Assembly (NCBI GenBank): GCA_044892505.1
Contig: CM097882.1
Location: 203,174,001-203,238,000 of the forward strand
DNA length: 64,000 bases
Direction of reading: 5' to 3'
From: Schmidtea nova
Lineage: Eukaryota
In this document: piece after piece, positions 1,569 to 64,000 of the stretch
Numbering within the stretch: the first letter of the stretch is position 1
How the letters are laid out: every line of letters starts with the position of its first letter
The notes under the pieces: model-generated
The model's database searches: none
Seen by the model: the letters and a program-made list of their open reading frames with translations, nothing else
Told to the model about the DNA's origin: nothing
Position numbers and translations under genes: made by a program

Positions 1569-2603
1569 CGTTTTTTCGAAAATGTAGAGTTAAGTGAGTT
1601 TTAGAATCTTTTGGAAATTTTATAAATCTTCCGCTGTCATCCCGGATATTTATTTCTATATTGTTTATACAGGATGTTGAAACAGATAAATACATTGGAT
1701 TATCCATTACTATTTGAACAATTTCATCTGGCTCGTATTTTTCAATCCATACCGATTTTAGTAAAGGAACCAAGGAATCACCAACAATAATGGGTTCGAT
1801 AATGTTTGTATACACGAATAATTGCTGATGAAGTTTAGATATTTTCGGTTGACGAACACCAGAAATGATATTTTTATCGGTAAATGTATCCTTATCTAAT
1901 CCTAATGTATTGACCAAGTATTTATCAAATCGGACTTTAGTAATTTTTTCTTTGAGTTTGAATTTGAACAATTTATTTAATTCGATAACTGTTAAAATTC
2001 CGAACAATTATCGCTAATATATTTCTGTAATTCATCTAGATGCGTTATATACAACTCCTCCTTGAATGTGAATACATGTCCTTCTTCACGATCATACGAT
2101 ATAGTAAAAGTAATTATTTCTTCATCGCTACTGGCCAAGTTTTGCATAACTTTGAATTCACATTCTTCTTGATTACATGTTATTGTCAGATTTTTACTTC
2201 CCATTCGTTTTGCTACATCAAGATCATTAAATGTAATTGTATACGGAACAACATTACACGTGAGAAATATTCTTCCACCTCGTTGCCACAATTCGATATC
2301 AGGATCAATTGTGTGAGTTGGAACATTCAGATGGCCAGTACTATTATATATCGAGAAAAACGCATTTGCAACAATTGTTTTCTTTTTATAGTAATAAATT
2401 TTACAATAACTATAATATGGAAAAGGTTGGTAAACAAATGTAAAATCCATTAGAGCAACTTCCCAATTTCCGTTTAAATAAATTGGATTAGGTAAATTCA
2501 CCATGAATTTACTTGCGGTATTATCCGGATGGATATTCGGACAACTATTGCTCGGTAAAATAGTGTAAAAATTCACTTTACTAGATTTTTTGACGAGATC
2601 CAT
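1561..2603 (-). pseudogene. Minor capsid (penton) protein with a 1-nt frameshift near 1995
   Basis: ORFs 1992-2603 and 1561-2007 together match the single 348-aa ORF at 60162-61208 (LPSNSCP, WEVAL, YxNIIEP, IEINIRDDSG). Confidence 0.8.
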
Positions 2604-3617
2604 GATGGTTCTTTATATCCATGCCATTTGACATAGTATTGTTTATCCTTACCCACCATTTTAGTCTTCAAAATCTTTTGAATTCTAAATATTGTAGGTT
2701 TAGGAATAACTTGTAATTCTTGTTCGTAGAATTTGCCGCTGATTATATTGTTATCAGAGTCACGAATAGTATACATGACAGGATTCTGCACTGTGTTGAC
2801 TTTCGATATTTGATATACCTCATCACTCCAATTATTATCAAAATTTTTAACGAATGGCGATGTACTAATCTTGCTAATTCGAACATGATCATCAACTTTA
2901 TATTTTGGTTTCTTTACTTTCACTTCACTCACAATATTTTCAGTATCAACTACTTCTGCCGGTTTCCTACCATTTATACCCCGATGAGCACTATGATTAT
3001 AACTGTGAATCAATTGAGGTAAGACATTAATCCAGGTTTTATTGCCTTTAAAAACAAAGTATTTTTTCAATCGATCACGTAAAGTTCGATTAAATCTCTC
3101 GACATGAGCGGCTTTGAATTGTGAGAATACCGAATAATGATTTATTCCCTTTATTACTTCCTTGACTTTACTGTTGTAAAATTCCTTTCCTAAAAAATAA
3201 TAAATATATAAAATTATATTTAACTTTACCCAAATCGGTTTGTAAATTAGTTGGCCGATCCTTTTTCATCATTGTCTTGATAGCAATTGCCATGTCATTA
3301 GCAGATTTAGATTTTACTCCAATTGCTCGAGCAAATCTACTGTAAACATCAATACATGTTAAAATATACTTGTACCCCTTGTTAACTTTGGAATACGGAA
3401 TCATTTCCATCAAGTCCATTTGCCACAAATCATTGATTCTATATGTTTTATATGCTCGAGTTGGAAACCGTTTCAACATCGGTTTGTTTAGACTGTATGA
3501 AAGTTGCCCCGATAACCAACTTTGTGTCTGTTGTTTCGACTTCTGTGCTTTTTTCCTTAGCTTTTCGACTCCACCGAAACCGGCGTCGTCTTTTGGGTTC
3601 GTCCAGATCTTCTCCAT
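2573..3617 (-). CDS. Retroviral-type DDE integrase with C-terminal chromodomain; two exons (3617-3230, 3189-2573), 334 aa
   Basis: WQMDL, LQTD and VERFNRT motifs; removing the 40-nt GT..AG segment 3229-3190 restores LQTDLGKEFYN and an open frame to YYVKWHGY. Confidence 0.88.
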
Positions 3618-3669
3618 TGCAACAAGAAGATTTAAAATTTAAATTTAAATTAGGTAATGATTGACCCAT
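3448..3669 (-). CDS. Conserved overprinted small ORF with MGQ start and CC motif (candidate lipidated protein)
   Basis: Alternative frame over the integrase 5' end; homolog at 62051-62284 keeps MGQ..L.NL.LNFKS.CCNG. Confidence 0.6.
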   Translation of the reverse strand: MGQSLPNLNLNFKSSCCNGEDLDEPKRRRRFRWSRKAKEKSTEVETTDTKLVIGATFIQSKQTDVETVSNSSI

Positions 3670-4211: not shown

Positions 4212-4835
4212 TTAACTTTGTTTATAAACCATGGCTCCTTCACTGTTAAAAATATCAGTTCTAACGCGTAAATCATCACTACATTGTTGAGTAAAATCAA
4301 GGAAAATATATCCATGAGGAGATTTTGTAGCATCTTGAAAGGCTTCAATCAAAAAGTTACGATTAGAAGGATAAGCTTGTCTTGCCAGAAAATCAATAAC
4401 TGTCGCATCTCTAGGATTTTTAAACACAACAAGATATTGAACATTTAAATTACGAGTTCGATGACTACCGCCCTGATGAAATAAATTCTGAGTTATAAAA
4501 ATAACAGTAACACCTTTATGTCTACTGATTTTCGTAAATAAGTTATTGAAATCCTTTTCTTTATTTGCTTCTTGATACAAGTCGTCAATGATAATCACAT
4601 CACCTTGTTTTAATCTAGATGACCAGTTTTTATCGAAACCTTTAATGATTGTCATTTTTATTTTACAAAACTGATCTTGTGTCATTCCACTTTCGTTGTC
4701 AGCGCCCCTATGCCAATAAATATTATTAAATTTTGACTTGAATAATTTCGATTGCAATAATTTACAAACAAATAAAGTTTTTCCACTCCCGCTCGGACCA
4801 ACAATTTGAAACACTGCATCATTTCTTAATTCCAT
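4212..4835 (-). CDS. Genome packaging ATPase (A32/FtsK-like)
   Basis: Walker A GPSGSGKT, Walker B IIIDD, ISRH and ITQN motifs. Confidence 0.92.
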   Translation of the reverse strand: MELRNDAVFQIVGPSGSGKTLFVCKLLQSKLFKSKFNNIYWHRGADNESGMTQDQFCKIKMTIIKGFDKNWSSRLKQGDVIIIDDLYQEANKEKDFNNLFTKISRHKGVTVIFITQNLFHQGGSHRTRNLNVQYLVVFKNPRDATVIDFLARQAYPSNRNFLIEAFQDATKSPHGYIFLDFTQQCSDDLRVRTDIFNSEGAMVYKQS

Positions 4836-4928: not shown

Positions 4929-5396
4929 ATGATTAGAAACATTAATTACAAAGGTAAGACAGATGTATCACACATGAAATTTCCAAATGGAAAACCCCAG
5001 CAAATTGTAGATCGAAGTGGGAAATACCCAATAATATACTTTAAATCAGGAAGATATAGAATAATGGGATGCAGGGAATTTATTAGTGACGAACAAGTTG
5101 AGTTTTACGATTTAAAGATACAATCGATAACTGTAACTGCGGATTTAGGATTTATTTGTAATTTGAATGAATTATCGAAATTAATACCATGTGTTTACGA
5201 GCCAGAATTATTTCCAGCTTTGAGATATATCAAATATAATCCCATGTGTGTAAATATATTTGCAAGTGGGAAATTAGTCATATTAGGATTAAAAAACAAA
5301 GACTATAGTACTATAGTTGATGATATTATTTACGATATAAAATCAATTATAGAAGATAAAGCCTTTGTTGATTTCATACTAACATGTGACTCATGA
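4929..5396 (+). CDS. TATA-box binding protein-like protein encoded by the Polinton
   Basis: Two TBP-like half repeats: KFP..IIYFKSGRYRIMG and YEPELFPALRY..VNIFASGKLVILGLK. Confidence 0.8.
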   Translation: MIRNINYKGKTDVSHMKFPNGKPQQIVDRSGKYPIIYFKSGRYRIMGCREFISDEQVEFYDLKIQSITVTADLGFICNLNELSKLIPCVYEPELFPALRYIKYNPMCVNIFASGKLVILGLKNKDYSTIVDDIIYDIKSIIEDKAFVDFILTCDS

Positions 5397-31680: not shown

Positions 31681-31849
31681 TTTGCATTCGTATATTAAAT
31701 TATTAAATTACAATAATTAAAGATTTTTATTTTGTAAAAAAAAATAAATGTTGTTGTTTAAAACTGTAAAAAAAATTTGTTATTTCAAATATATTATATT
31801 GACTCCATTATTAATTTGGTTTAATTTGATTTTTAAATTATCACAAAAT

Positions 31850-32305
31850 ATGTCCATTGATCATAGTGATTTAGATCGACAAATTGAACAGCTTAAGCAA
31901 TGTAAATTAATTTCAGAAATGGAAGTCAAGCTTTTCAAAAACGGTGGTGATATTCCGAACACAAATTATTTGTTTCTCGTTGATTTTGTTGATCGTGGCT
32001 TTTATTTCGTTGAAAAATTTTTATTGTTGCTTGTCTACAAAGTCAGATATCCAGATAGAATTATATTGATTAGAGGCAATCATGAAAGCCGACAAATTAC
32101 TCAAGTATATGGATTTTATGATGAATGCATGAGAAAATATGGATCAGCTGTAGCTTGGAGATATTGCACAGAAATATTTGATCACCTCAGTTTATCAGCT
32201 GTAATTGATGACCAGATATTTTGCGTTCGCGGTGGCCTTTCTCCATCTATTTCTACATTAAATCAAATCAGAGCATTAGATAGGAAGCAAGAAGTTCTTC
32301 ACTAT
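31850..32305 (+). pseudogene. PPP4C: Protein phosphatase 4 catalytic subunit fragment, intronless, internally deleted
   Basis: [43 protein letters not shown]; the segment carrying GDIHG is missing. Confidence 0.85.
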
Positions 32306-32309
32306 GAAC

Positions 32310-32610
32310 TGGATAATGAATCGATGGTAAATCTAGCAAACATAATGCTTGGAGGTTTCGCGAAGGCGCACTACGCCCGAAACACTTCATTCTGATTTTG
32401 TCGTCAAAGGTTTCAATAAGAGTCTTTGTGGCATCTTCGGCTTGAAGCGGGAAGATGAATTTTGAGTGGCAAAAGATGTTGTAAGCATCTATTTTTTGAT
32501 GGGCTCTTAACTTTGAGTTAAATATTTCTTCTGTTTTTGCAATGACTTCATTAAATAATTCTATCATATCACTTCTTTTTGTTTCTCTAATTTTTACTCC
32601 AATGTAAGTC
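32310..32610 (-). mobile_element. Fragment of an R2/NeSL-type RT C-terminal region
   Basis: QKIDAYNIFCHSKFIFPLQ..FDDKIR resembles the post-RT region of site-specific LINEs. Confidence 0.5.
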
Positions 32611-43881: not shown

Positions 43882-46800
43882 CTATTGCGGATGCAGAATT
43901 CTGTAATTGTAATTCTGAATGCTGGTACCCTGATCGTTTTCATCAAATGGGTTATTGTCCAGGAATCGATTATTTTCATCATCATCATCATCATATATAA
44001 AAGTATCCCCCACCCGATGATGCCCATGTGCCAAACTCTTGTTTTTGGAACACCAATACCGCTTATCATCCCTATTTGTCAGCGCCCTCTTATTGTTTCT
44101 AATGCTGTACAATTGATGGTTTTTGGAAGTAATGCGGAATTGTGGAACAGAGTAAACCTTATTGTTAAAGAAACAATCGCGATAAGAGTTATGGTTTAAG
44201 CCACTATCTTTTAATGTGACAGACTTAGCCTTGATAGTTTCTTTGTCACCTAACAAACTGTAACATTTGGGACGAAGAAACACCCACTCCTTATATTTCT
44301 GCCCTTTATTCTCATCTTTGAATTTTCCTATAACGGAATCCAGGGCTCTACTATATAGGGCATGTTATGGGTCATAGTTAGATGTGTCAAGCAAGGAGTC
44401 ACGAATCATGGCAGGTAAGAGAATGTCAAGACTACAATGTTTAATCTCCAAGAAGAAAGAGTCTGTATCACCTGCGACTATATTAATTTGACAGTTAAAC
44501 TCCTCGCGATATTTTTGCAAGTCGTTATACTGTAACTGATACATTCTCAGTTTAGACAGATCCAGTACTGATTGACCAATGTAGCTGGGTCTATCTAAAC
44601 ATACAGATTCTTTCCTAAACAAAACCGAAATCAAATCATTGTCTATCCTGGTAAATTTCCTAAATACCGATTTTGAGGTATATGTGATAAGTTTTTGCGC
44701 TGAATTGCACAGGCGTAAGTTCATACGTTTTTTCAAGTTCTCAACAGTTTTTCCATACAAACTGTTGTTGAGTAACTTGTAATAATCTCTATCGAGCGGA
44801 GTTGTGGAAGATGCTCGTAATTGGGTGTTTGTGTCTATATATTTTTTGAATACTGTGCTTTGTGTGTACCTAATAGCCCTATGTACCTTTGTGACAACAA
44901 CACCTAACTGAAGAAAGATTTGGAGAAGTCGCCAATGGAGAACGTAGTTTGTTTTCGGGTAATGTGTAAGTAGCAACTTCTCCACTTTAGAAAAAGGTGG
45001 ACACATCTTTTCAGGAGCTACCGGAAAATCATCAAGCTTATCCTGAATTGATGGTGGTATTTGTAAATCCACTTCGACTGTGTAACCATAATCAATCAGA
45101 CTTAAATCTACCGTTGTACATTCAATTAATAATCTCTCTAAAGTCGTATCGTCAGTCACCCACTCAAAATCACCATCGGGAAGTTTTTGACTCAAAGCCC
45201 ATCCATACAGGTTGTTTATGTCAATGTACAACAACTCTGTATTTTCATCACTACGAACAAAATGCTTATTCACAAAAGTTATCCCACCTCTAATCCCACC
45301 CTCAAAGAAATTGTACATCTCCATGTCGGTGAGAAGTACAATAGGTTTATCAAGACTTAACAAAGCAGAACTCCAAGAAAGACTGGGGATACCAAGAAAA
45401 TTAAGGGGTTCAAGTTTATTATGGGCAATACTCTTAGCCCGGAATTGCTGAAAAAAGTCAGCCAACAGGAAAACATCTAACTTGAGGTAGACCATCATAT
45501 AATCCAAAAGGGAATTACACGATGTCTCTTGCCATATCAATTTGGCCTTATCATACTCATCTTGGGACACATCACTCCATTTTGGGGGTAATTCTAATGT
45601 TGAGCTTAATACATCAAGGGATGTCGCTATATCATAAGGGAATATTCCTTTACTATTTATGATAGTGCCTCTAAACTCAGATTCCGTCAAGGGTAAAGAA
45701 TTCAAGTTTGACACAGCCTTTTTCAATGAAGAATTTACAAATTGGCAACTATCGATGAATTTAACTGTCAAAGAATCTATATAGGCGGTTAGGGTTAAAA
45801 CTTCTCACTTGTTAGCGGAATGCAACTTAAATTCCAGGACTTATAATTTGACAAACCGAATTTGATGATATGATGAAGATCATACCCTTTCAAATTATGA
45901 AAGACTACAGGTAGTGTGTGTCGTATTTGTCTGGATAAATTACATTTTCTACAAGCAGCACCAATGAATTTACCAGTGAAGTGATTATGGTCTCTAACAG
46001 GGGTATCTAATAATTTATTACACAAATGACAGTTTGTGCTGTTACTGTAATTAATAGCGTCATCGTCGGTAAAAATAATTTTCTTGTCAAAATTTTTATA
46101 GTAGTAGGGACTTACAATCTTTTTTGATATATGCTCAATTTGACGTAAAAACTGATCTACACAAGAAAGCCCTATAAAAGAATTATAAAATTTTTCTCCC
46201 GTATAATTGTTGAAACACAAAAGCCCAGCAGAAATGGGTAAGTGTTTTTGATAATATCTTTCATCTTTTGGGAGTATTGCCTCAAAATCGGCATAAATGA
46301 CAAAAGGAGGAGTGATGGTTTTTCTATAATCACTAAATTCCAATAAAGAGTTATCGGGTAGAGTATACATTGTGGTTCCTAATTGGTTTTTATCACAAAG
46401 ACCTATATGTCTATTAAAACTATCGTCACGTCTAAATCCATTAAGACACCTAGGACACCACTTACATTGAATACGAACTGAACTTATTGATGAGTTTCGA
46501 CAATTTAGAAATATATTTAGGTTAGATATAGCGACATAATGATAGGTTTTTCGATTCTCCAATAATAATAAATTTAAACAAGTACCTCCTACCACCTTAC
46601 TACGATAAATAATATCTATGAAGGGATGTTTCATTATAGTGTCATTATTACTTATATTAATCAAGGCATTCTCCTCGTAACTTAAGACATTAATGGCATA
46701 TCCTGGGTTTTGTCCTTTAAATTTGGAAATATTTGATAATTTCATTGGCATATCAGCCGGGTCATATACAAGTTGGGAAAGATTATAGGATGAAGACAGA

Positions 46801-47972
46801 TGACGTAATTCATCGGGAGTGCTGCTATATTTTATAAGGGCCAATATCGAATAAAGAAAACAAAATTGATCGTCGTTATTTACATTAACTAGACAATTTT
46901 TCCTGATTAACGTTCTGGGGGTTTGAATATATTTGCGACCACTCAGTCTACTTATCTCAGAGTATTTTGTGACTATAAAACTAATATATTCAATTTTTCT
47001 GATGGTCCAATTACTCCCCTTTTCATTTATTTTACTTATTTTCTCGTTTAAAAGAGAGATACCCTCGTCAATGAAAGATTCGCTCCAAACACGAGCAGAG
47101 TTTGAGATGACGAAAGATTGAAGTTCATCATCTTTCTCAAACTCTACTTTAATACAAAATTGTATTTTCACCGATTTCATTTTACTTACAGTTTCAAATA
47201 ATTTATCAAGGAGAACGTCAGGAACAGAAAGAGTTTGACAATTCAAAGACGACACATCAAGCTTCACTATAACATGGGAGTTATTCAAGTCTGAAACTAT
47301 ATCAACTACGCCACAGCCTACTTGAACCGAAAAACAATTAAGAATTTGGGGTACTACCTCGCTAAGAATCTCGTCATCACTAATATTTACAATCTCATCA
47401 TCATCATCACTAACATTTACAACCTCGTTATCTACAAGAACCTCGTTATCTACAAGAACGTCGTTATCTACAAGAACGTCGTTATCTACCAGAACCTCAT
47501 TATCTACAAGAACATCGTTATCTACAAGAACCTCGTTATCTACAAGAACCTCGTCGTCGTCGTCACTTATTGTTATGATTTCGTCTATTTTATTCTTTTT
47601 TGTGGGAATATCAGTTGAAAAATCTGATTGTCTTTTACTACCTATTACATTTATTAACTTATTGATTGACTCTATCAATTGTTGGTTTTGTAATAAAATC
47701 TCATTCATTGTAGTATTGTTATTATTGTTGTCAATTTGCCTATTGGTTTCATGATTGGTTTCAATGTTAGTTGTTGTTGTTGTTGTTGTTGATGTAGTCA
47801 AAGCTTTTGAGTAAGCTGTATTAAAAATGGTTTTTTTAGAAGGCATATATTGAGTTAAATGAATATGGTGTTTATCATAGAAGTCAGTATATGTCGATGT
47901 TTCAAGATTTTGGCATACGGGGCATAACAGGTAAGTTATACAATTATATTTATAACGATAGTATTTTTCCAT
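43882..47972 (-). pseudogene. polB: Protein-primed family B DNA polymerase with one frameshift (about 45795) and one in-frame stop (44365-44367)
   Basis: YADFE, HNLKGYD, KFIDS, YIDINNLYG, KLLNNSLYGK, AGDTDS, LRPKCY motifs across three consecutive ORFs. Confidence 0.92.
47420..47555 (-). repeat. 18-bp coding tandem repeat (DNEVLV/DNDVLV)n in the pPolB N-terminal region
   Basis: Seen in DNA and in the translated ORF. Confidence 0.9.
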
Positions 47973-51616: not shown

Positions 51617-51658
51617 CTGTTAGTAAAGCCGATACCCAAAATTCTCTCAAATGATATT

Positions 51659-51985
51659 TCACAAACCATGAAATTGATCCTGCGTAAACCATTGAACAAT
51701 ATCAAAAGTACTAGATGAACCACATGGAAAATGACTCAAGGGATCCATAAATTGGCCCATTACTTTTAAACATTTCATTCTAACGTGAGAATATGTTGAG
51801 TTTAAATTTCGAACAATTTGCATTATTTGGAAATTGTTGATATCATTACATTTAGAAATTGAATTAATTTCTTTCAAAATTTCATATTTTTCAGGTGATA
51901 AAACATCGGTCATTGTGGTTGGACTTGCAAAATGATTGGTAAAAATGATATATTTTAATTTTTTACATTTGCATTTATTTTGCAT
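51659..51985 (-). pseudogene. Captured host gene 5' fragment in the LTR, tentatively tepsin (ENTH)-like
   Basis: EILKEINSISK..NLNSTYSHVRMKCLKVM resembles tepsin EEIAKISH..RLHSSSGHGKLKVLKIL from memory; duplicate at 58540-58866. Confidence 0.3.
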
Positions 51986-52163
51986 TGAATAACATTGATT
52001 TTTTTATTTTGACTGAGGGTTTGGTATTGTTCGAGGTTTGTTTTAATATTTCTCGTGGAATTTATATTTTGCTGCTAAAGTTTAAAAATTGTAAGAAACT
52101 TGTGAATATAGTTTAAAATAAATATTTTTTAAAAAGTGGACTACTAGTTTTTGATAATTTAAA

Positions 52164-52567
52164 ATGCGTTATTCTATTGTTAAAATTTTAATTGTCCTAC
52201 AAATTTTAACACTTCATATTTTGCAAATGTGTCACAGTAATATTGTTGGATGTGGTGGTTTCGTTAAAACAGATATCATTGGATTTGCTTATCATAAATT
52301 ATCAGCACAATTAATGTTTTCGGACGGAACTCTAAATTATGTGACTGATGTCCCTCCAAATGGAGCGCATTCTATTCCTATATATGATTTCGGTTTCTAT
52401 GTTACCAAAATTATGAGTCCTGACGGTTGGAATATTGAACCAACTGATGGCTACGTTATAAACATTAATAGCCAAGATTCTCGTCCAGATGACTATAATT
52501 TTCATTTCGCTGGTTTTACCGTACTTGGTAAAGTATCAACAGCTAATATTGAAACAGGTCCACTAAA
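52164..52567 (+). other. NOMO: Captured N-terminus of nodal modulator (NOMO) inside the LTR
   Basis: Signal peptide then IVGCGGFVK..GTLNYVTD..PN..IPIYDFG..GWNIEP..NFHFAGFTVLGKV..GP, matching the NOMO N-terminus; duplicate from 59045. Confidence 0.85.
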
Positions 52568-54929
52568 AATGGTGTCAGAGGAAAACCAATCTCCAATTCA
52601 AGATGGAAATCAAACATTTCGTCCCCAAGTCTCACAACATCCAGCAACAATGAATAATTCATTTCAATTAAACTCATCTAATTCTAATAATGCAAGTACG
52701 CTTAGTCAAATTGAAGTCGTTAAGCGAATTGCAGCTGCAATGCAACCACCACCACCTCCGATGCATTTAAGCAATCGACAAAATCAACCGTCAATTCCAA
52801 CCCCATTTCAAGTAAATCAAAACTCTCAAATTCCATTAGACTGTGCGCAATTGATAAGGATTCCAACCAGTTCACAAGACTCAGCTACTAACATTCGACA
52901 GGCTTCACATTTATTACAACAGAATTTAATCTTACAAAGTGATAAATTTAAGCAAGCTAACAATCATATATCAGATTCTAGCAACTCTACAGCCCCTAAT
53001 CAGTCTTTAATCGTCAACAATTCAACGAATAGTAGTCTGTCAGCAATAACAATAAGTTCACCTCCAGTCGCTCCACAGAATCAAAATTCTACAGTTCTTT
53101 CAATGATTAACGTCGACGTTCGAATATTAGAAGCGATAAATCGATCGATTTCTCAGCAGAATCCAAAACCAGTAAATTCAATGCCAGTAAATCCCAATTT
53201 TTCTCTTATTCAAACGGATCCCAAAGTCGCTCAACAATTGATTAATGACTTTCAAAAGCAGTTTCTTTGCATACCGCTAGGTGCTAAGCCACAGGGATAC
53301 AATTCAATTGGTCAAACATCGGAAGCAACACAAATCAACATGAAAAATTGCAATAACATCAAATCTATCGTAAATTTTTCACCAGCTCCATCGAATATGA
53401 ACTTAAACACCAACAACGATATCAATAATTCGCTATTAAAAGCTCCATCAAATTCAAAAGTCACAGGAACTCCAATATTAACAGATTTTCTTCTCTTTTC
53501 GGAACAGAAGATCAGCCCCCATTATCGCTGTGGAGTTACGTTAGCATATTTTATTATTATATTAAATTTCTATTATTATATATTATTATTATTTATATCA
53601 TTATTATTAAAATCATTATTATTAAAATTAACGGAGCCGCCCAATCTTCCGAATTTTAGTCTACGTCGCATATCCTATAGGTTTTTGTCAATATTCGTAA
53701 GGGTTTCCTCCGCCACATTTCACTTTAAACTAGCCCAGGACACGACTATATCAAAACTATCTACATTAATTTGCAAGCGCTTGTCGTACGAGGGACCGAC
53801 ATACATATCTTATAATGGCGCAATATTAAGGAATCAGGACTCACTTTTAAGTTCTGACATATGTTCGGATTCTTTGTTGTTCTGTCATGTACCATTGTAT
53901 GGCGGCGCACCATCAAGTATAGATGATGACAACGAATACGACGATAAAAAGCCCAAACCTTTGCCTAAAAAGCAAAGAAATGTTCGAGGCGCTGCTTCTT
54001 CCGACAGTAACTCTAGACAAAATATTAATTGTCCGTTCTTTTTAGATGAGAACCAATCACCATCAACTTGGTTACTCACACTCGAAGCCCTTTTAGAAAG
54101 TTGCGGCGTTACTTCTTCAAGAGATAAATTCTATAGAATATTATCTCTCATTCCACAGGAACATTTAGGCCGCCTTTCTGCCGTTATTCGCCGCACAACG
54201 CAAAAAACCTTTCTAACTCCTTTTGAGGAACTCAGCACAGGACTGCTGGATTTATTTAAAGTCCCCAAACAGGAAATATTCTCAAAATATTTCAAGGCCC
54301 AATCTTTAGGAAGTTGTAAGCCGACAGAATTTTTGCAGAAGGCTTTTACAGACCTCGAACAAATGCAAAATGGGACAGCACCCGACCAAAACATGCTACG
54401 CCAGTTCTTTTTAAGTGTACTTCCGACACACACACAACAGATACTTGCTTTATCGTCTCCGGTAGATATACACGAATTAGCAAAAATGGCGGACAAAATT
54501 CATGAAATTGTTCCGTTAGGTGGTACACCAGGCTCATCTGTCAATAGCCTTCCTATCGCAAGCCCGCCGATCCCATCATCAACAGAAAATGCTCTTCTTT
54601 GCGCCATTCGCGACCTTACTGATCGTATTTCGCATTTGGAACGTTACAAATCTCCGTCTCGAAATCCACCACCTTCCAATGCGTTTGACCGACGACGTTC
54701 CAAATCCCCGGCTTATTCAAACATTTGCTTTTATCATACCAAATATGGGACGAAAGCAAATTGTTGCAACATAGGATGTGGCTGGCGAAACAAAGCAGCT
54801 ACCCTCAAAATCATTGATAAGTGCATCTATCACGCACGATTTGGGGATAAAGCAAACAAATGCATTGTAGGTTGCAAATCCTACAATTCCCCACCATCTT
54901 CTCCAAACAACATTCAAAAAAACTTGTAA
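52164..54929 (+). CDS. gag: NOMO-linker-TM-ubiquitin-like-Gag fusion ORF, 921 aa
   Basis: Single open frame from the LTR through the PBS into Gag (WLLTLEALL, KPTEFL, LAKMADKI, two Cys/His boxes). Confidence 0.85.
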   Translation: MRYSIVKILIVLQILTLHILQMCHSNIVGCGGFVKTDIIGFAYHKLSAQLMFSDGTLNYVTDVPPNGAHSIPIYDFGFYVTKIMSPDGWNIEPTDGYVININSQDSRPDDYNFHFAGFTVLGKVSTANIETGPLKMVSEENQSPIQDGNQTFRPQVSQHPATMNNSFQLNSSNSNNASTLSQIEVVKRIAAAMQPPPPPMHLSNRQNQPSIPTPFQVNQNSQIPLDCAQLIRIPTSSQDSATNIRQASHLLQQNLILQSDKFKQANNHISDSSNSTAPNQSLIVNNSTNSSLSAITISSPPVAPQNQNSTVLSMINVDVRILEAINRSISQQNPKPVNSMPVNPNFSLIQTDPKVAQQLINDFQKQFLCIPLGAKPQGYNSIGQTSEATQINMKNCNNIKSIVNFSPAPSNMNLNTNNDINNSLLKAPSNSKVTGTPILTDFLLFSEQKISPHYRCGVTLAYFIIILNFYYYILLLFISLLLKSLLLKLTEPPNLPNFSLRRISYRFLSIFVRVSSATFHFKLAQDTTISKLSTLICKRLSYEGPTYISYNGAILRNQDSLLSSDICSDSLLFCHVPLYGGAPSSIDDDNEYDDKKPKPLPKKQRNVRGAASSDSNSRQNINCPFFLDENQSPSTWLLTLEALLESCGVTSSRDKFYRILSLIPQEHLGRLSAVIRRTTQKTFLTPFEELSTGLLDLFKVPKQEIFSKYFKAQSLGSCKPTEFLQKAFTDLEQMQNGTAPDQNMLRQFFLSVLPTHTQQILALSSPVDIHELAKMADKIHEIVPLGGTPGSSVNSLPIASPPIPSSTENALLCAIRDLTDRISHLERYKSPSRNPPPSNAFDRRRSKSPAYSNICFYHTKYGTKANCCNIGCGWRNKAATLKIIDKCIYHARFGDKANKCIVGCKSYNSPPSSPNNIQKNL
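52570..52579 (+). promoter_or_regulatory. Primer binding site TGGTGTCAGA (tRNA-Leu-like, partial)
   Basis: 2 nt after the 5' LTR end; matches the known TGGTGTCAGA-type PBS over 10 nt. Confidence 0.7.
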
Positions 54930-57900
54930 TGCCATCACTCGTTGCGGCTGAAGTTGATGGCAAATTACCTCCTGCACTCGATTTATTTCTAGTGAGAGCT
55001 GAATCCCCTTCTTTCAGCGTTTCTCCGAACTTTTGCAGTACTCTCGATTTTCTTGTTGACACAGGATCCAGCCTCTCCATTCTTCCTTTACAATATGAAT
55101 CTCTTTGCGATGATTCCGTTTATACCTTGAAAGCCGCCAACGGAACCATGGTAAATACACACGGTTCTTTTTCAGCAAATTTCGTTCTTCCTTCTTTAAA
55201 TCAATCTTTTATATGGAAGTTCTGTGTCGCTGACGTTATCCATCCCATTCTTGGCTCAGACTTTTTGAGTTCACACAATTTGTTGGTCGATTGTCGTTCA
55301 CGCCTTTTGAGAACACATTCGCACACAAATTCGTCTTTAGTCATTGACACAAAAAAACTCAACATTTTCAACTCATCTGACGTTTCTGTATCCACTGCCA
55401 TTCAACCCATTCATCCAAAAATTGCTACAGACATTTTAAATAAATACACATTTTCACAAACAATGCCTTTACGAAAACAAGTCTCTGTAACATCTTACTG
55501 CCATACTATCAACACCACAAACTCTCTTCCGGTACGTTGTAAAGTACGCCCTCTTTCGAACGAAAAACTAGATTTCGTTCGCTCCGAATTCGCTACGTTG
55601 TTGAACGAAGGCATTATAAAAAGATCTAAATCTCCATGGTCTTCACCACTTCATCTCGTACCAAAGAAAGACGGAACTTTCAGACCTTGTGGAGATTATC
55701 GTCGTTTAAATATGATTACGGTTCACGACTCATATTCTATGCCTTTAGTAAACGACATTTTGTACAGACTTACCGAGGCCAAAATATTTTCAACTATAGA
55801 CTTAGTTAAGGCCTATCACCAAATCCCAGTTAAAGAATCTGACGTGGAAAAAACCGCAGTTTTAACACCTATCGGACTCTTTGAGTACGTTTTCATGCCG
55901 TTTGGCCTTAGAAATTCCGCTCAAACCTTTCAAAGACACATCGACCATATTTTAATGGATTTACCATTCGCAATTCCTTATATTGACGATATCCTTATTG
56001 GTTCTAAGGATGCGGAAACACACAAAAAACATTTAGATGCAGTTCTTTGCGCACTTTCTTCCAATAACCTACAAATTAATTTAGATAAGTGCTTATTTTT
56101 TAAAGAAGAAGTCCGTTTTTTAGGTCACATCATCTCGGGTCAAGGCGTCAGTCCACCATCCGACAGACTAGATACTATATCTAAGTTTCCTCTCCCACAA
56201 ACTGTTACTCAACTTCGGAGTTTTCTGGGAACAGTAAACTATTGCCACCGTTTTATTCCTAAAATTTCAGAAATTCTTTCACCTCTTTCTGGTTACTGTT
56301 CTAAACCAAAGAAATCCATAATTCCTTGGAACGATACTTCGTTGCTCGCTTTTGAGCATGCCAAAACAGCCCTTTCAAACATACAGACTCTGCATTATCC
56401 ACGAGGAGATTTGCCATTACGTTTAACCACAGACGCATCAAACATAGCAATCGGTGCCGTTTTACACCAGATAAACGGTTACATCCCAGATCCACTAGAA
56501 TTTTACTCAAAGAAACTAACCTCACCACAACAAAAATATTCAGCTTTCGACCGCGAACTTCTCGCTATTTACCAGTCGGTTAAACATTTTAAGCATTTAC
56601 TCGAGGGCCGTCTTTTTAGCATCCATACAGACCACAAGCCACTTGTTTACTTGTTCTCAATGAAAGACCCTTCTCCGAGACAACAACGCCAGATTAGCTA
56701 TATTAGCGAATTTTCTTGCCAAATATACCACATCGCCGGCAGTGATAACATTATAGCTGATTGCCTTTCACGAAATGTAAACGCAATTATCCACTGTCCT
56801 TTATTTTCTATCGACGAACTCCAAAATAATCCTCCAGATGCCATTGATATTTCGAAATTTGGCGACAAACACATAATCAAAGACAAAATTCACTACGACT
56901 CATCTCTTCCTGGCACTCTTCGCCCAATCTTGAATGACTCCATGAGAAAACTGGCTTTTCTCTCTGTCCACAACACGCACCACCCAGGTTCCTCAGCCAC
57001 TTTTAATCTATTACACACGTGTGTAGTTTGGCCAAACATGAGACATGATGTTAAACTCTGGGTTGCACAATGCATAGGATGCCAACGTTTTAAGATAACT
57101 AAGCACACTAAACCTCCAATAATTCATTATCCCACTGGCAACCGTTTCGAAAACTTACACATTGACATCGTCGGCCCAGTCCCAAGTGACTGCGGTTTCT
57201 CTTACTTATTAACCATGATCGACCGCAAGACTCGTTGGTTCGAAGTCATTCCTTTACGCACCATTTCTTCTAACACTATCGCAACTTCGCTAATTCAAAA
57301 TTGGATTTCACGATATGGAGTTCCCAAGTCGATCATCAGTGATCGCGGAACACAGTTTGAATCTAACTTATTTCAAGCTTTGACCGCTAAACTTGGGATA
57401 CAACATCTTCGTACGACCACATATCATCCACAAACAAACGGGTTAGTCGAACGTTTCCATCGTACTTTAAAAGCTTCTCTTGGCATTCTTTCTGAACAAC
57501 AAGGTTGGACAAAGGTTTTACCTTTCGTATTATTAGGTTGGCGAAATACACCTTCTAGGACTACAGGATCATCACCCGCTCAATTACTTTTCGGTACAAA
57601 CACATCGTTACCCGGTCAACTTGTCGACTTTGATAACTCTCCTACTTTGGAAGATCTCGCGATTGCTAGAGACCATTTTTTATCAATCGACACTAATCCT
57701 GAATTCTCTTCCTCGACCACCTATAAACCTTACATTCCAAAAACATTCGAAAATGCATCACACGTCTATATTAGAAATATAACTGATGCAAGTTTAAAGC
57801 CAAGATATTCCGGACCTTACAAGCTCGTCGAGATTAAAGAAAACAACGCGAAAGTGATCGTTAACGACGCTACACAAACATTTAACCTCTGCCGTCTTAA

Positions 57901-58270
57901 ACCAGCTTTAGTTTTGCTCGATGATGAACCTCCACCTGACAATTTCTCGACCCAAACAGATATAATCTCGAACTCTCACACAAACGATAATGACCTTATC
58001 AATTCCACTGAGGACGATCTTTCCAACAACTCACCTTCATACCCGATTGTTCAAACATCAGACGCAGAAAACAAAACGACGGAAAAATCTGAATACATAC
58101 CGTTTATCCCAGAACCGAATGACGTACTTCGTTTACCACCCATTTTGAGGAAAGCAAAGCAAACACAAAATAAGCCAAAGTCCGTCACTTACAACAAATG
58201 GGTTCGTGTCCGTTCTATTAATCAAAAACCGGATTCACCAACTAGACTAATAAGAATCTATTCAAATTAA
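54860..58270 (+). CDS. pol: Gypsy Pol (protease, RT, RNase H, integrase)
   Basis: LVDTGS, YIDDIL, TTDAS, HHPG..C..C, HIDIVGP, SDRGTQFE, VERFHR; no stops. Confidence 0.95.
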   Translation: MHCRLQILQFPTIFSKQHSKKLVMPSLVAAEVDGKLPPALDLFLVRAESPSFSVSPNFCSTLDFLVDTGSSLSILPLQYESLCDDSVYTLKAANGTMVNTHGSFSANFVLPSLNQSFIWKFCVADVIHPILGSDFLSSHNLLVDCRSRLLRTHSHTNSSLVIDTKKLNIFNSSDVSVSTAIQPIHPKIATDILNKYTFSQTMPLRKQVSVTSYCHTINTTNSLPVRCKVRPLSNEKLDFVRSEFATLLNEGIIKRSKSPWSSPLHLVPKKDGTFRPCGDYRRLNMITVHDSYSMPLVNDILYRLTEAKIFSTIDLVKAYHQIPVKESDVEKTAVLTPIGLFEYVFMPFGLRNSAQTFQRHIDHILMDLPFAIPYIDDILIGSKDAETHKKHLDAVLCALSSNNLQINLDKCLFFKEEVRFLGHIISGQGVSPPSDRLDTISKFPLPQTVTQLRSFLGTVNYCHRFIPKISEILSPLSGYCSKPKKSIIPWNDTSLLAFEHAKTALSNIQTLHYPRGDLPLRLTTDASNIAIGAVLHQINGYIPDPLEFYSKKLTSPQQKYSAFDRELLAIYQSVKHFKHLLEGRLFSIHTDHKPLVYLFSMKDPSPRQQRQISYISEFSCQIYHIAGSDNIIADCLSRNVNAIIHCPLFSIDELQNNPPDAIDISKFGDKHIIKDKIHYDSSLPGTLRPILNDSMRKLAFLSVHNTHHPGSSATFNLLHTCVVWPNMRHDVKLWVAQCIGCQRFKITKHTKPPIIHYPTGNRFENLHIDIVGPVPSDCGFSYLLTMIDRKTRWFEVIPLRTISSNTIATSLIQNWISRYGVPKSIISDRGTQFESNLFQALTAKLGIQHLRTTTYHPQTNGLVERFHRTLKASLGILSEQQGWTKVLPFVLLGWRNTPSRTTGSSPAQLLFGTNTSLPGQLVDFDNSPTLEDLAIARDHFLSIDTNPEFSSSTTYKPYIPKTFENASHVYIRNITDASLKPRYSGPYKLVEIKENNAKVIVNDATQTFNLCRLKPALVLLDDEPPPDNFSTQTDIISNSHTNDNDLINSTEDDLSNNSPSYPIVQTSDAENKTTEKSEYIPFIPEPNDVLRLPPILRKAKQTQNKPKSVTYNKWVRVRSINQKPDSPTRLIRIYSN
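54917..54962 (+). promoter_or_regulatory. -1 programmed ribosomal frameshift signal
   Basis: A AAA AAC heptamer 54917-54923, 6-nt spacer, stem TGCCATCA/TGATGGCA; pol is in the -1 frame. Confidence 0.8.
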
Positions 58271-58492
58271 TTGCACCACTGTCCACCAAGTTCTATTAGT
58301 TTTTTTTTTTTTTTTTCGGTTTCCTAAATTTCTTTCGCAATTCTTTCTCAGGTTATTCCATGTCATTCACGACTCTTTCCAAATACTTTCTGGACACTAC
58401 AAAATACCATATTATTATATAATAAACTACTATATTACGTATCTACATTATAGTATTTCAAAATGTACTCCGCATCTTCCGATGGGGGCTGA

Positions 58493-59448
58493 TGTAGTGG
58501 TCTAGAAAGCCGATACCCAAAATTCTCTCAAATGATATTTCACAAACCATGAAATTGATCCTGCGTAAACCATTGAACAATATCAAAAGTACTAGATGAA
58601 CCACATGGAAAATGACTCAAGGGATCCATAAATTGGCCCATTACTTTTAAACATTTCATTCTAACGTGAGAATATGTTGAGTTTAAATTTCGAACAATTT
58701 GCATTATTTGGAAATTGTTGATATCATTACATTTAGAAATTGAATTAATTTCTTTCAAAATTTCATATTTTTCAGGTGATAAAACATCGGTCATTGTGGT
58801 TGGACTTGCAAAATGATTGGTAAAAATGATATATTTTAATTTTTTACATTTGCATTTATTTTGCATTGAATAACATTGATTTTTTTATTTTGACTGAGGG
58901 TTTGGTATTGTTCGAGGTTTGTTTTAATATTTCTCGTGGAATTTATATTTTGCTGCTAAAGTTTAAAAATTGTAAGAAACTTGTGAATATAGTTTAAAAT
59001 AAATATTTTTTAAAAAGTGGACTACTAGTTTTTGATAATTTAAAATGCGTTATTCTATTGTTAAAATTTTAATTGTCCTACAAATTTTAACACTTCATAT
59101 TTTGCAAATGTGTCACAGTAATATTGTTGGATGTGGTGGTTTCGTTAAAACAGATATCATTGGATTTGCTTATCATAAATTATCAGCACAATTAATGTTT
59201 TCGGACGGAACTCTAAATTATGTGACTGATGTCCCTCCAAATGGAGCGCATTCTATTCCTATATATGATTTCGGTTTCTATGTTACCAAAATTATGAGTC
59301 CTGACGGTTGGAATATTGAACCAACTGATGGCTACGTTATAAACATTAATAGCCAAGATTCTCGTCCAGATGACTATAATTTTCATTTCGCTGGTTTTAC
59401 CGTACTTGGTAAAGTATCAACAGCTAATATTGAAACAGGTCCACTAAA
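58493..59448 (+). repeat. 3' LTR, 956 bp, termini TGTAGTGG...CCACTAAA
   Basis: Follows GATGGGGGCTGA; terminal inverted repeat with CA changed to AA. Confidence 0.92.
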
Positions 59449-60169: not shown

Positions 60170-61208
60170 TTAATTTACGAAAATGTAATGTCAAATGTGT
60201 TTTTGAATCTTTTGGAAAATTTATTAATTTACCACTATCGTCACGGATATTTATTTCTATATTGTTTATACATGAGGTAGAAATAGGTAAATACATTGGA
60301 TTATCCATTACTATTTGTACAACTTCATCCTGTTCATATTTGTCGATCCATACAGATTTCAGTAGAGGAACCAGAGAATCACCGACAATTATTGGTTCGA
60401 TAATGTTACTGTAAATGAACATTTGTTGATGATGATTAAATAATTTGGCTTTGCGAATTCCTTTAACTTCTCTATCTTGATATTTTTCATATTTTAATCC
60501 AAGTGTATTGATTAGTTTTTGATCAAATATAACTTCTTTAACTTCATCTTTCAGTTTAAATTTGAATACATTGTCAATAATTTCAACACCTTTAAATATA
60601 TGAGAACAGAAAAATGTCAAATAATTATATAAATCTTCAACTTTTGTCATGTATATTTCGTCTTGGAATTCATAAAGTAAATCTGTTTCTAAATCATAAC
60701 TTATTGATATATGCATTTTCTCTGATGAATAATCAGAAGGAAAAAGCATTTTATAAGTTGAATTGTTGCTAATGATTTTTAATTCATTAAACCCAAATTT
60801 ATTCGCATCTTCTATATTTTCAAACTTAAAATAAAATGGTGTTATATCACAATTTATATGTAAATATATTTTATCTAGATGTAATTCAACTTTATCATTC
60901 AAATATTGAGTATCTTCATAATTAGTTTGAACTTTAAAGTAGTCATTTACAGTTTCAGTTGTCACTGTCGTGTAGTAAATTTTGCATTGGCTGTAATAAG
61001 GAAATTTGTTATATACAAATGTGAAATCTTGCAATGCAACTTCCCAATTACCACGTAAATAAATTGGATTTTGTAAATTGATCATGAATTTACTAGCTTG
61101 ATTATCTGGATGAATTAATGGGCAACTATTACTTGGTAAAATCATATAAAAGTTCATTTTACTAGATCTTTGGCTGATATCCATGATGGGTTTTGATATC
61201 CATGCCAT
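60162..61208 (-). CDS. Minor capsid (penton) protein, intact
   Basis: 348 aa; position between integrase and MCP block; LPSNSC, WEVAL, IEINIRDD motifs. Confidence 0.8.
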   Translation of the reverse strand: MAWISKPIMDISQRSSKMNFYMILPSNSCPLIHPDNQASKFMINLQNPIYLRGNWEVALQDFTFVYNKFPYYSQCKIYYTTVTTETVNDYFKVQTNYEDTQYLNDKVELHLDKIYLHINCDITPFYFKFENIEDANKFGFNELKIISNNSTYKMLFPSDYSSEKMHISISYDLETDLLYEFQDEIYMTKVEDLYNYLTFFCSHIFKGVEIIDNVFKFKLKDEVKEVIFDQKLINTLGLKYEKYQDREVKGIRKAKLFNHHQQMFIYSNIIEPIIVGDSLVPLLKSVWIDKYEQDEVVQIVMDNPMYLPISTSCINNIEINIRDDSGKLINFPKDSKTHLTLHFRKLND

Positions 61209-62220
61209 TTGACATAATATTGTTTATCTTTACCCACTATTTTAGTTTTTAAAATTTTTTCAATTCTAAATACTGTTAGTGGGGGAATAACTTGCAATTC
61301 TTGCTCGTAAAATTTACCACTAACTACATTATTTTCAGAATCAGAAATAACATACATGACAGGATCTTGGCTAGTATTAATTTTTGAGATCTGAAATACC
61401 TCATCACTCCAATTACTATCAAAATTCTTGATGAATGGTGAAGCAGATATTTTACTAATCCTAACATGATCACCAACTTTATATTTAGGTTTTTTCATTT
61501 TCGATTTTTCTTTGCGAGATAATAAAATCTTTGCTGTATTTTTTATTGAAACATCAACTGGTCTCATTCCCTTTAATCCTATATGCGGTGAATGATTATA
61601 ACTATGAATAATCTTTGGTAAAACATTAATGTATGTTTTATTCCCTTGATGCACAAAATACTTTTTCAATTTTTCTCTTAATGTACGATTAAATCTTTCA
61701 ACATGCGCTGCTTTGAATTGTGAAAATACCGAGTAATGATTTATTCCCTTTAAAATTTCTTTAACTTTGCTATTGTAAAATTCTTTACCTAAATTAAAAA
61801 TTAAATTTAATTTAATTAATTAATTTTCTTACCTAAATCAGTTTGTAAGTTTTTCGGCTGCCCATCAGCAAACAATGTTTTGATTGCCACTGCCATTTCA
61901 TTAGCAGATTTAGTTTTGGTAGGAATAGCACGAGCAAATCTACTGAAAACATCGATACATGTTAAGATATACTTATATCCCTTGTTAATATTCGAATAGG
62001 GAATCATTTCCATCAAATCCATTTGCCACAAGTCATTAATACCATATGTTTTATATGCTCTTGTTGGAAATCGTTTCAATGCTGGTTTGTTTAGACTGTA
62101 TGCCAGTTGCCCCGATAACCATTTTTGAGTCTCTTTTTTCGAGTTTGGGACTTTTTTCTTTAGCTTTTCGACTCCACCGAAACCGGCGGGATCTTTTGGG
62201 TTCGTCCAAATCTTCTCCAT
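61154..62220 (-). CDS. Chromo-integrase; exons 62220-61833 and 61788-61154, 340 aa
   Basis: 44-nt GTAAG..TTTAG intron 61832-61789; splicing restores LQTDLGKEFYN. Confidence 0.9.
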
Positions 62221-62284
62221 TACAACAAGTAGATTTAAAATTCAATGTAAGATTAGCTAAATAACTCAAAGGAGTTTGTCCCAT
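62051..62284 (-). CDS. Overprinted MGQ/CC ORF, homolog of 3448-3669
   Basis: Same frame relationship to the integrase. Confidence 0.6.
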   Translation of the reverse strand: MGQTPLSYLANLTLNFKSTCCNGEDLDEPKRSRRFRWSRKAKEKSPKLEKRDSKMVIGATGIQSKQTSIETISNKSI

Positions 62285-62844: not shown

Positions 62845-63468
62845 TCAACTTTGTTTATAAATCATTGCACCTTCTTTATTGAAAATATCGGTACTAACTC
62901 GTAATTCATCAGGACATTGTTGTGTGAAATCCAGAAAAATATACCCATGTGGAATTTGAGTTGCATCTTGAAATGCATCAATTAAAAAACTACGATTATT
63001 AGGGTAAGCTTGTCTTGCAAGAAAATCAATAACTGTTGCATCTCTGGGATTTTTAAAAACAACTAGATATTGAACATTTAAATTACGAGTTCGATGAGCT
63101 CCACCTTGATGAAATAAATTCTGAGTAATAAAAATAACTGTAACTCCTTTATGTCTAGCTATTTTCGTGAATAAATTATTAAAGTCCTTTTCTTTATTAG
63201 CTTCTTGATACAAATCATCAATAATAATAACATCACCTTGTCGTAATCTAGATGACCAGTTTTTATCAAATCCTTTAATTGTTGTCATTTTTATCTTACA
63301 AAATTGGTCTTGTGTCAAACCATGTTCATCATCAGCTCCCCGGTGCCAATATATTTTATTAAATTTTGATTTAAACATATTTGATTGTAATAATTTACAA
63401 ACAAACAATGTTTTCCCACTTCCACTTGGACCAACAATTTGATATACTGCGTCGTTTCTCAATTCCAT
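62845..63468 (-). CDS. Genome packaging ATPase
   Basis: GPSGSGKT, IIIDD; closely similar to 4212-4835. Confidence 0.92.
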   Translation of the reverse strand: MELRNDAVYQIVGPSGSGKTLFVCKLLQSNMFKSKFNKIYWHRGADDEHGLTQDQFCKIKMTTIKGFDKNWSSRLRQGDVIIIDDLYQEANKEKDFNNLFTKIARHKGVTVIFITQNLFHQGGAHRTRNLNVQYLVVFKNPRDATVIDFLARQAYPNNRSFLIDAFQDATQIPHGYIFLDFTQQCPDELRVSTDIFNKEGAMIYKQS

Positions 63469-63559: not shown

Positions 63560-64000
63560 ATGCTGACCAACATAAATTATAAAGGTAAATGCTCAGTTTC
63601 GCACATGAAATTTCCAATGAAGAAACCACAACAAATTGTCGATAGAAGTGGAAAGTATCCGATTTTATTTTTCAAATCAGGTAAATGTCGAATAATGGGG
63701 TGCAAAAAACCTTTAAAAATTGAAGATTTACAATATCCAATTGAAGATATTCAAATTCAATCAATTACAGTAACTGCAGATATAGGATCCCGTGTTAATT
63801 TAAATTTATTATTGAAGAAAACTAATTGTGTTTATGAACCAGAAATATTTCCAGCTTTGAGATATTCTAAATTTAATCCATTATGTGTAAACGTTTTTGC
63901 AAGTGGCAAAGTAGTAATACTTGGTATTAAAACCTTGGATTATCATGAATTGGTTGAACAAATTATTAACGAAATAAAATCGATGAATGAGGAGGAAGAT
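63560..64000 (+). CDS. TBP-like protein of Polinton B (runs off the window; absent from ORF track)
   Basis: Manual translation MLTNINYKGK..KFP..LFFKSGK..YEPEIFPALRY..NVFASGKVVILG. Confidence 0.8.
   Translation, partial: MLTNINYKGKCSVSHMKFPMKKPQQIVDRSGKYPILFFKSGKCRIMGCKKPLKIEDLQYPIEDIQIQSITVTADIGSRVNLNLLLKKTNCVYEPEIFPALRYSKFNPLCVNVFASGKVVILGIKTLDYHELVEQIINEIKSMNEEED

Follow-up and report, generated by a model that had tools for sequence, protein, structure and literature searches.

We found that a tiny AT-rich insert interrupts the integrase core of Polintons in Schmidtea nova. Selection, reading frame, splice-site conservation and phylogeny agree in strongly supporting its identity as an intron, as the earlier note had proposed, with splicing itself inferred from sequence. 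The mini-intron is a well-supported mark of a very large Polinton clade. We consider it probable that it is a host-type spliceosomal intron, gained once in the ancestor of the clade, routinely removed and needed for a working integrase.

The interrupted integrase and its gene block

The window, that is the whole stretch of 64,000 nt that was analysed, holds two interrupted integrase genes, in copies A and B. In copy A, exon 1 (3230..3617, minus strand; 388 nt) encodes the N-terminal helices and the first two catalytic Asp residues and matches Pfam rve (E 5.5e-8), and exon 2 (2573..3189, minus strand), open over 204 codons, carries the catalytic Glu, the C-terminal domains and a chromo-like end. 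Between them lies a 40-nt, 92.5% AT, GT..AG insert in phase 1 (3190..3229, minus strand). Copy B has the same layout, with a 388-nt exon 1 (61833..62220, minus strand; rve E 4.6e-8), a 44-nt, 93% AT, GT..AG insert, also in phase 1 (61789..61832, minus strand), and an exon 2 open over 210 codons (61154..61788, minus strand). The earlier description of AT-rich GT..AG inserts of 40 and 44 nt, in the same phase after 388 coding nt, was thus re-read exactly. In both copies the insert splits the codon of the Gly that follows LQTDL. Its distance from the second catalytic Asp is two codons, and alignment to PFV integrase agrees with the position given before. The two intron interiors are unrelated, as had been claimed: their similarity was at shuffle level, with 396 of 1,000 shuffles scoring equal or higher. 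An identical 10-nt word occurs at both junctions of the B intron.

A natural uninterrupted integrase of 340 aa in the same genome, L107, is colinear with exon 1 plus exon 2, and its alignment to PFV integrase assigns two catalytic Asp to exon 1 and the Glu to exon 2. The AlphaFold model of L107 has a mean pLDDT of 86.9 and its fold matches intasome integrases (E 1.4e-14). Together, Pfam rve, the PFV alignment and the intasome fold match confirmed a retroviral-type DDE integrase. On this model the intron cut is predicted to fall mid-core, just after strand 124–126 and before the Glu-bearing helices. Counted from the start of exon 2, the catalytic Glu is residue 30, and the retained frames would give products of 149 aa (A) and 134 aa (B). 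These sizes and the loss of the Glu stood as first described; the loss of a chromodomain depends on a weak Chromo match at the exon 2 C-terminus (E 1.6e-4 and 7e-5), which lies under the Pfam cut-off.

The surrounding genes resemble Polintons/Mavericks in their rve integrase with a chromo-like end, A32-type ATPase, protein-primed PolB and long terminal inverted repeats. Uninterrupted packaging-type ATPase genes lie at 4212..4835 (copy A) and 62845..63468 (copy B), both on the minus strand, and the assignment was confirmed by Pox_A32 (E 1.3e-6, above cut-off). The protein-primed DNA polymerase B gene (44365..47972, minus strand), downstream of the copy B gene block, was confirmed by DNA_pol_B_2 (E 9e-20). 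It is frameshift-broken in the window, and most sister copies have long open frames; among 109 scored copies, most hold the polymerase as one long frame of about 1,300–1,430 codons. A terminal inverted repeat of 808 bp and 98.9% identity surrounds one B-type sister copy rather than the window's own copies. The ORFs of about 406 and 340–357 aa that follow the integrase had no Pfam match, and we presume from gene order that the ORFs after the integrase encode capsid proteins and a protease.

The ATPase and three downstream ORFs were uninterrupted in A, B and sister copies, barring copy-specific damage, and no second intron turned up in the genes covered (ATPase, three downstream ORFs and polymerase). 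A candidate second intron in the polymerase was ruled out as a copy-specific frameshift of the window copy, and the break in the putative minor capsid ORF of copy A looks like a small deletion.

Several other features of the block were observed. An ORF beginning with MG and containing a CC pair overlaps the integrase start in another frame, in copy A at 3448..3669 (minus strand; 73 aa) and in copy B at 62051..62284 (minus strand; 77 aa); it was present in 7/7 assembly representatives (59–77 aa), and 11 of the 33 relatives inspected from metagenomes had it too. We take its MG..CC arrangement to be lipid-anchor-like, and the product could be a damper of integrase translation or a virion membrane peptide. 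ORFs with a TBP domain (4929–5396 and 63560–64000, plus strand; Pfam TBP E 1e-13 and 1.6e-18) stand head-to-head with the ATPase genes. An LTR retrotransposon with identical 943-bp LTRs (51625–59448) sits in the putative major capsid ORF of copy B, and its first ORF combines NOMO1-like and ubiquitin-like domains. At another locus, L303-L304 (C1:287-307 kb), an element with a 42-nt stop-free intron and a 361-aa read-through ORF carries a tandem pair of ORFs whose sizes, 345 and 340 aa, are minor-capsid-like.

Abundance of the insert and the case for splicing

When the 1.25-Gb assembly was searched with an exact degenerate junction pattern, 10,576 matches had a 25–55-nt insert and 178 had none, both numbers being lower bounds that count only copies fitting the pattern. 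The reversed control pattern gave 0 matches in the same assembly, so the insert is not a product of chance. Far from most copies lacking the segment, the result that would have told against the earlier note, 98.3% of the junction matches contained it. Inserts of 56–86 nt gave only 17 matches, mostly microsatellite expansions. A first look across the assembly also found 37,734 polymerase candidates, and with more than 10,000 integrase junctions this implies that Polintons fill a large share of the genome.

The splice sites were conserved throughout this population. The search pattern had left the terminal positions free, and GT and AG were nevertheless both kept in 10,281 of the 10,576 inserts (97%). 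The insert lengths listed run from about 37 to 48 nt, and 1,606 of the 10,576 are 42 nt long. Among the first 30 loci there were 21 distinct introns, all of which start with GT and end with TAG; 20 of the 21 have A at both donor +3 and +4, and 12 contain a YTRAY word 11–20 nt from the 3′ end, a weak signal at 90% AT.

Both integrase exons were found to be under purifying selection, while the intron interior has drifted. Exon 2 showed a dN/dS of 0.04–0.16 at dS 0.4–3.5 in 15/15 pairs of six intron-bearing representatives; at least six sampled subfamilies carry the intron, more than the two named in the earlier note. In the same six representatives the first Met of exon 2 comes at least 29 codons past the catalytic Glu, so exon 2 would be unable to work alone. 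Over the 60 loci that were read, insert lengths of 40–45 nt span all three frames, so neither read-through nor a fixed frameshift can be the general route. The selection, the frames and the late Met together imply that exon 2 undergoes translation and has to be linked to exon 1. The GT..AG ends join two coding frames under selection, a feature of U2-type spliceosomal introns. Four sequencing runs that look genomic, with Nextera-like adapter ends, gave no joint across the intron when aligned to A and to B (in B the repeat at the intron was skipped), a result neutral as to splicing. We propose that the element would be transcribed in the nucleus and that the host spliceosome would then remove the ~40-nt intron.

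These properties leave little room for a dead lesion that is never spliced, with copies mobilised in trans by the uninterrupted 340-aa integrase ORFs present in the assembly: this is highly improbable given the constraint on exon 2 along intron-bearing lineages, the fixed GT/AG around a drifting interior and the same break signature in outside proteins that are 79–84% identical.

In the mitochondrial cox1 of the assembly, both AAA codons fall at conserved Asn positions, a sign of NCBI table 9 (flatworms or echinoderms); taken with the AT-rich genome, the tiny introns and the PPP-phosphatase matches, this suggests a free-living flatworm, likely a planarian. For comparison with host introns, PPP-phosphatase genes of the host were used, of which the assembly gave 88 matches. 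From 50 phosphatase loci came a small sample of 18 homology-predicted intron candidates, several of the low-scoring ones being false; 8 of the 10 best-scoring are predicted to be AT-rich GT..AG introns of 42–63 nt, the shortest being 42 nt. Published lengths for planarian introns, as given in parts of two papers, centre on 57 bp (PMC4978528) or peak at 45–85 bp (PMC13594981). By sequence-based prediction, the Polinton intron (about 37–48 nt) would be as short as the shortest host introns or shorter still, and retention could for this reason be substantial. As a separate observation, the window holds a PP2A/PP4-type phosphatase gene copy (31748-32395, plus strand) that lacks introns and has lost part of its sequence, with an intron-bearing relative, 90% identical, at C2:224.74 Mb of the assembly.

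Origin of the intron and its intronless relatives

Surveying the same position elsewhere, as the earlier note had suggested, revealed the insert in more than 10,000 assembly copies and, outside the assembly, proteins that break after QTDLG. We found 41 outside proteins with exon 1 as query. In a quick maximum-likelihood tree of 35 rows from the assembly and 28 from outside, with stop-containing, short-exon-2 and duplicate rows dropped, 24 intron-bearing rows and 3 outside exon-2-only proteins formed one group (SH-aLRT 96), and the 11 intronless assembly rows fell apart from it. Four outside proteins (P0153, P0194, P0154 and P0195; 17 proteins and 2 cluster members were read) end in AT-rich-codon tails right after QTDLG and are 79–84% identical to the nearest assembly copy compared, P0195 by way of its cluster mate. 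A careful tree of exon 1 only joined 3 of these 4 to the intron group (support 89/85, unstarred) and left P0195 unplaced; a tree constrained to hold all four together was not rejected (AU p = 0.24). Two of the four come from contigs equal in length to those of exon-2-only proteins. The genes of these proteins presumably contain the intron. P0155 and P0195 fall in one outside cluster, in which P0195 has the intron-like tail after QTDLG; in P0155 QTDLG jumps to the last integrase residues, by a deletion or an alternative junction.

The intron-bearing copies cluster, together with outside proteins that stop after QTDLG; a single gain in an ancestor is thus the most likely source of the common position, and the clade that inherited it would reach beyond this genome. 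Convergent gain in A and B was rejected by both the quick tree and the exon-1 tree. Duplication of a proto-splice site, as the 10-nt repeat at the B junctions might indicate, is a possible origin; TTAG|GT is present in 922 copies, and such an origin would look the same as AT-rich convergence.

No precise intron loss or retrocopy was found in the assembly by searching for an uninterrupted junction together with the clade's shorter loop. Six candidate losses all proved false, five being mutated intron 3′ ends that mimic exon and one unrelated upstream DNA, and the 11 odd intronless copies all have the longer loop of outside lineages. Metagenomic relatives were uninterrupted in 80/80 examined, a sample biased by one search word that spans the junction and by keeping the best 80 of 145. 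The intron pattern had 0 matches in IMG/VR and 0 in JGI metagenome contigs, and no integrase relatives were found in the viral contigs database.

The main intronless family within the assembly is a giant palindrome of two 6.85-kb arms with 99.8% identity, as at L107-L108 (C1:216.887-216.901 Mb) and L105-L106 (C1:17.243-17.258 Mb). Open frames for the ATPase, the integrase and the putative capsid proteins are present in each arm; a polymerase ORF of at least 80 aa is absent. Many of the 178 uninterrupted matches occur as inverted pairs about 7,245 nt apart.

Regulation, persistence and significance of the intron

The earlier note had proposed that splicing acts as an integration switch like that of the P element. 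The likeness to the third P-element intron, IVS3, is that of a recombinase intron whose retention would leave a truncated, catalytically dead product. As described in passages of PMC7776569, IVS3 shows tissue-specific retention, an exonic silencer with pseudo-donors, control by PSI/hrp48 and piRNAs, and a 66-kDa repressor. In contrast, the Polinton intron, compared here at the level of sequence, cuts mid-core and its retention tails vary. The tail was 3–20 aa long in 58 of 60 loci with read-through in the other 2, and 5 of 30 sampled 42-nt introns were stop-free; retention of this intron thus neither always truncates nor yields a conserved product, as it would in an IVS3-type system. By eye, the final ~35 nt of exon 1 contain no GT in copies A and B. 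The proposed switch found no direct support: the retention product would stop mid-domain, its tail is unconserved and the donors are near-consensus.

We nevertheless weighed a regulated switch, in which host factors or piRNA-guided chromatin would set retention so that virion and replication genes are on while integrase is limited to certain cells. The only intron seen in the element lies in the integrase, the gene that commits it to the chromosome, and this sole-intron status favours an integrase-specific role. Retention removes the catalytic Glu, and the intron, near minimal in length, has persisted in lineages that differ by a dS of more than 1; the assembly yielded no case of its precise loss. 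The host offers possible means of control: in planarian stem cells 107 frame-disrupting retention events are enriched, partly dependent on BRULI (PMC4978528, in part), SMEDWI-2 represses planarian Polintons (PMC8532177, in part), and piRNA control of splicing has the IVS3 precedent. However, the P-element retention product is a proven repressor with an intact DNA-binding domain, whereas the product predicted here would be cut mid-core. The unconserved tails and the stop-free introns also speak against a switch, and the lack, by eye, of a GT-containing pseudo-donor near the exon 1 end of A or B may do so too. Retained introns in planarian stem cells are reported to be longer than average rather than tiny (PMC4978528). 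Uninterrupted relatives with the same gene block occur in the same genome, and in a DNA element an intron may persist without selection. Hence we regard a regulated switch as rather unlikely. A more specific form, which we think quite unlikely, is that a 40-nt splicing gate uncouples integration from virion and replication expression, with PIWI or CELF/MBNL setting retention by cell type (stem versus differentiated) and so enabling the 10,000-copy expansion without killing stem cells; if true, it would be the first such switch, controlling integration through splicing, in a Polinton.

The numerical success of the clade could also be attributed to the intron itself. Splicing might mark the integrase mRNA as self or aid its export, and this would have helped the clade to an excess of about 60 to 1 over sisters that lack the intron, as the 10,576 versus 178 matches suggest; in human cells, silencing aimed at mobile elements without introns is reported to be counteracted by introns (PMC8770142). 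We judge this decidedly unlikely, since one gain provides no replication, the remaining element genes are intronless, and the main family without the intron is a palindromic derivative that has no polymerase ORF, enough on its own to explain its rarity.

An ordinary, routinely removed spliceosomal intron needs no function to persist, because replication as DNA offers an element no routine path of intron loss; with no cDNA step to purge it, the intron would remain by default. From unspliced RNA a half-core protein would result, a dead end rather than a repressor, and so short an intron may splice imperfectly, passively damping integrase output.

Introns in related elements differ from this one. 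Intact vertebrate Mavericks are reported to have no introns (PMC8097293), whereas in the clade described here the integrase alone contains one, a short one. Ginger1 has Gypsy-like integrase/transposase genes with 1–4 mostly GT-AG introns, some at conserved positions (PMC2836005, in part); in contrast to the self-synthesizing, virus-like element described here, it is cut-and-paste and without polymerase or virion genes. Dinoflagellate maverick-polinton-like proviruses contain introners, which are spliceosomal-type introns (PMC11957031, in part). The introners are young and repeated, acting as intron-generating transposons at many sites, whereas the Polinton intron is old, saturated, at a single site and with no sign of mobility. 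Maverick expansions are also reported in Dugesia (10.64898/2025.12.11.693146, in part). No description of an integrase intron of this kind was found in Polinton/Maverick titles or abstract openings, and the founding 2006–2007 papers, supplements or Repbase may already annotate a two-exon integrase; a term search of PMC8502044, PMC10748475, PMC6431247 and PMC5718144 gave nothing relevant to a Polinton intron.

The intron provides a clean marker of the clade. Polinton genes are described as lacking introns, and ORF-based annotation misses or splits a two-exon integrase, so intact elements of the clade would score as broken. Integrase output would be tied to a nuclear spliceosome that handles ~40-nt introns, which likely narrows the host range. 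Since one junction is common to more than 10,000 copies, RNA-seq data already existing for the host or its relatives can quantify, for each cell type, the transcripts able to yield integrase, making the switch cheap to test. If retention proves to be regulated, P-element-like control would have evolved independently a second time, in this case in a virus-like element.
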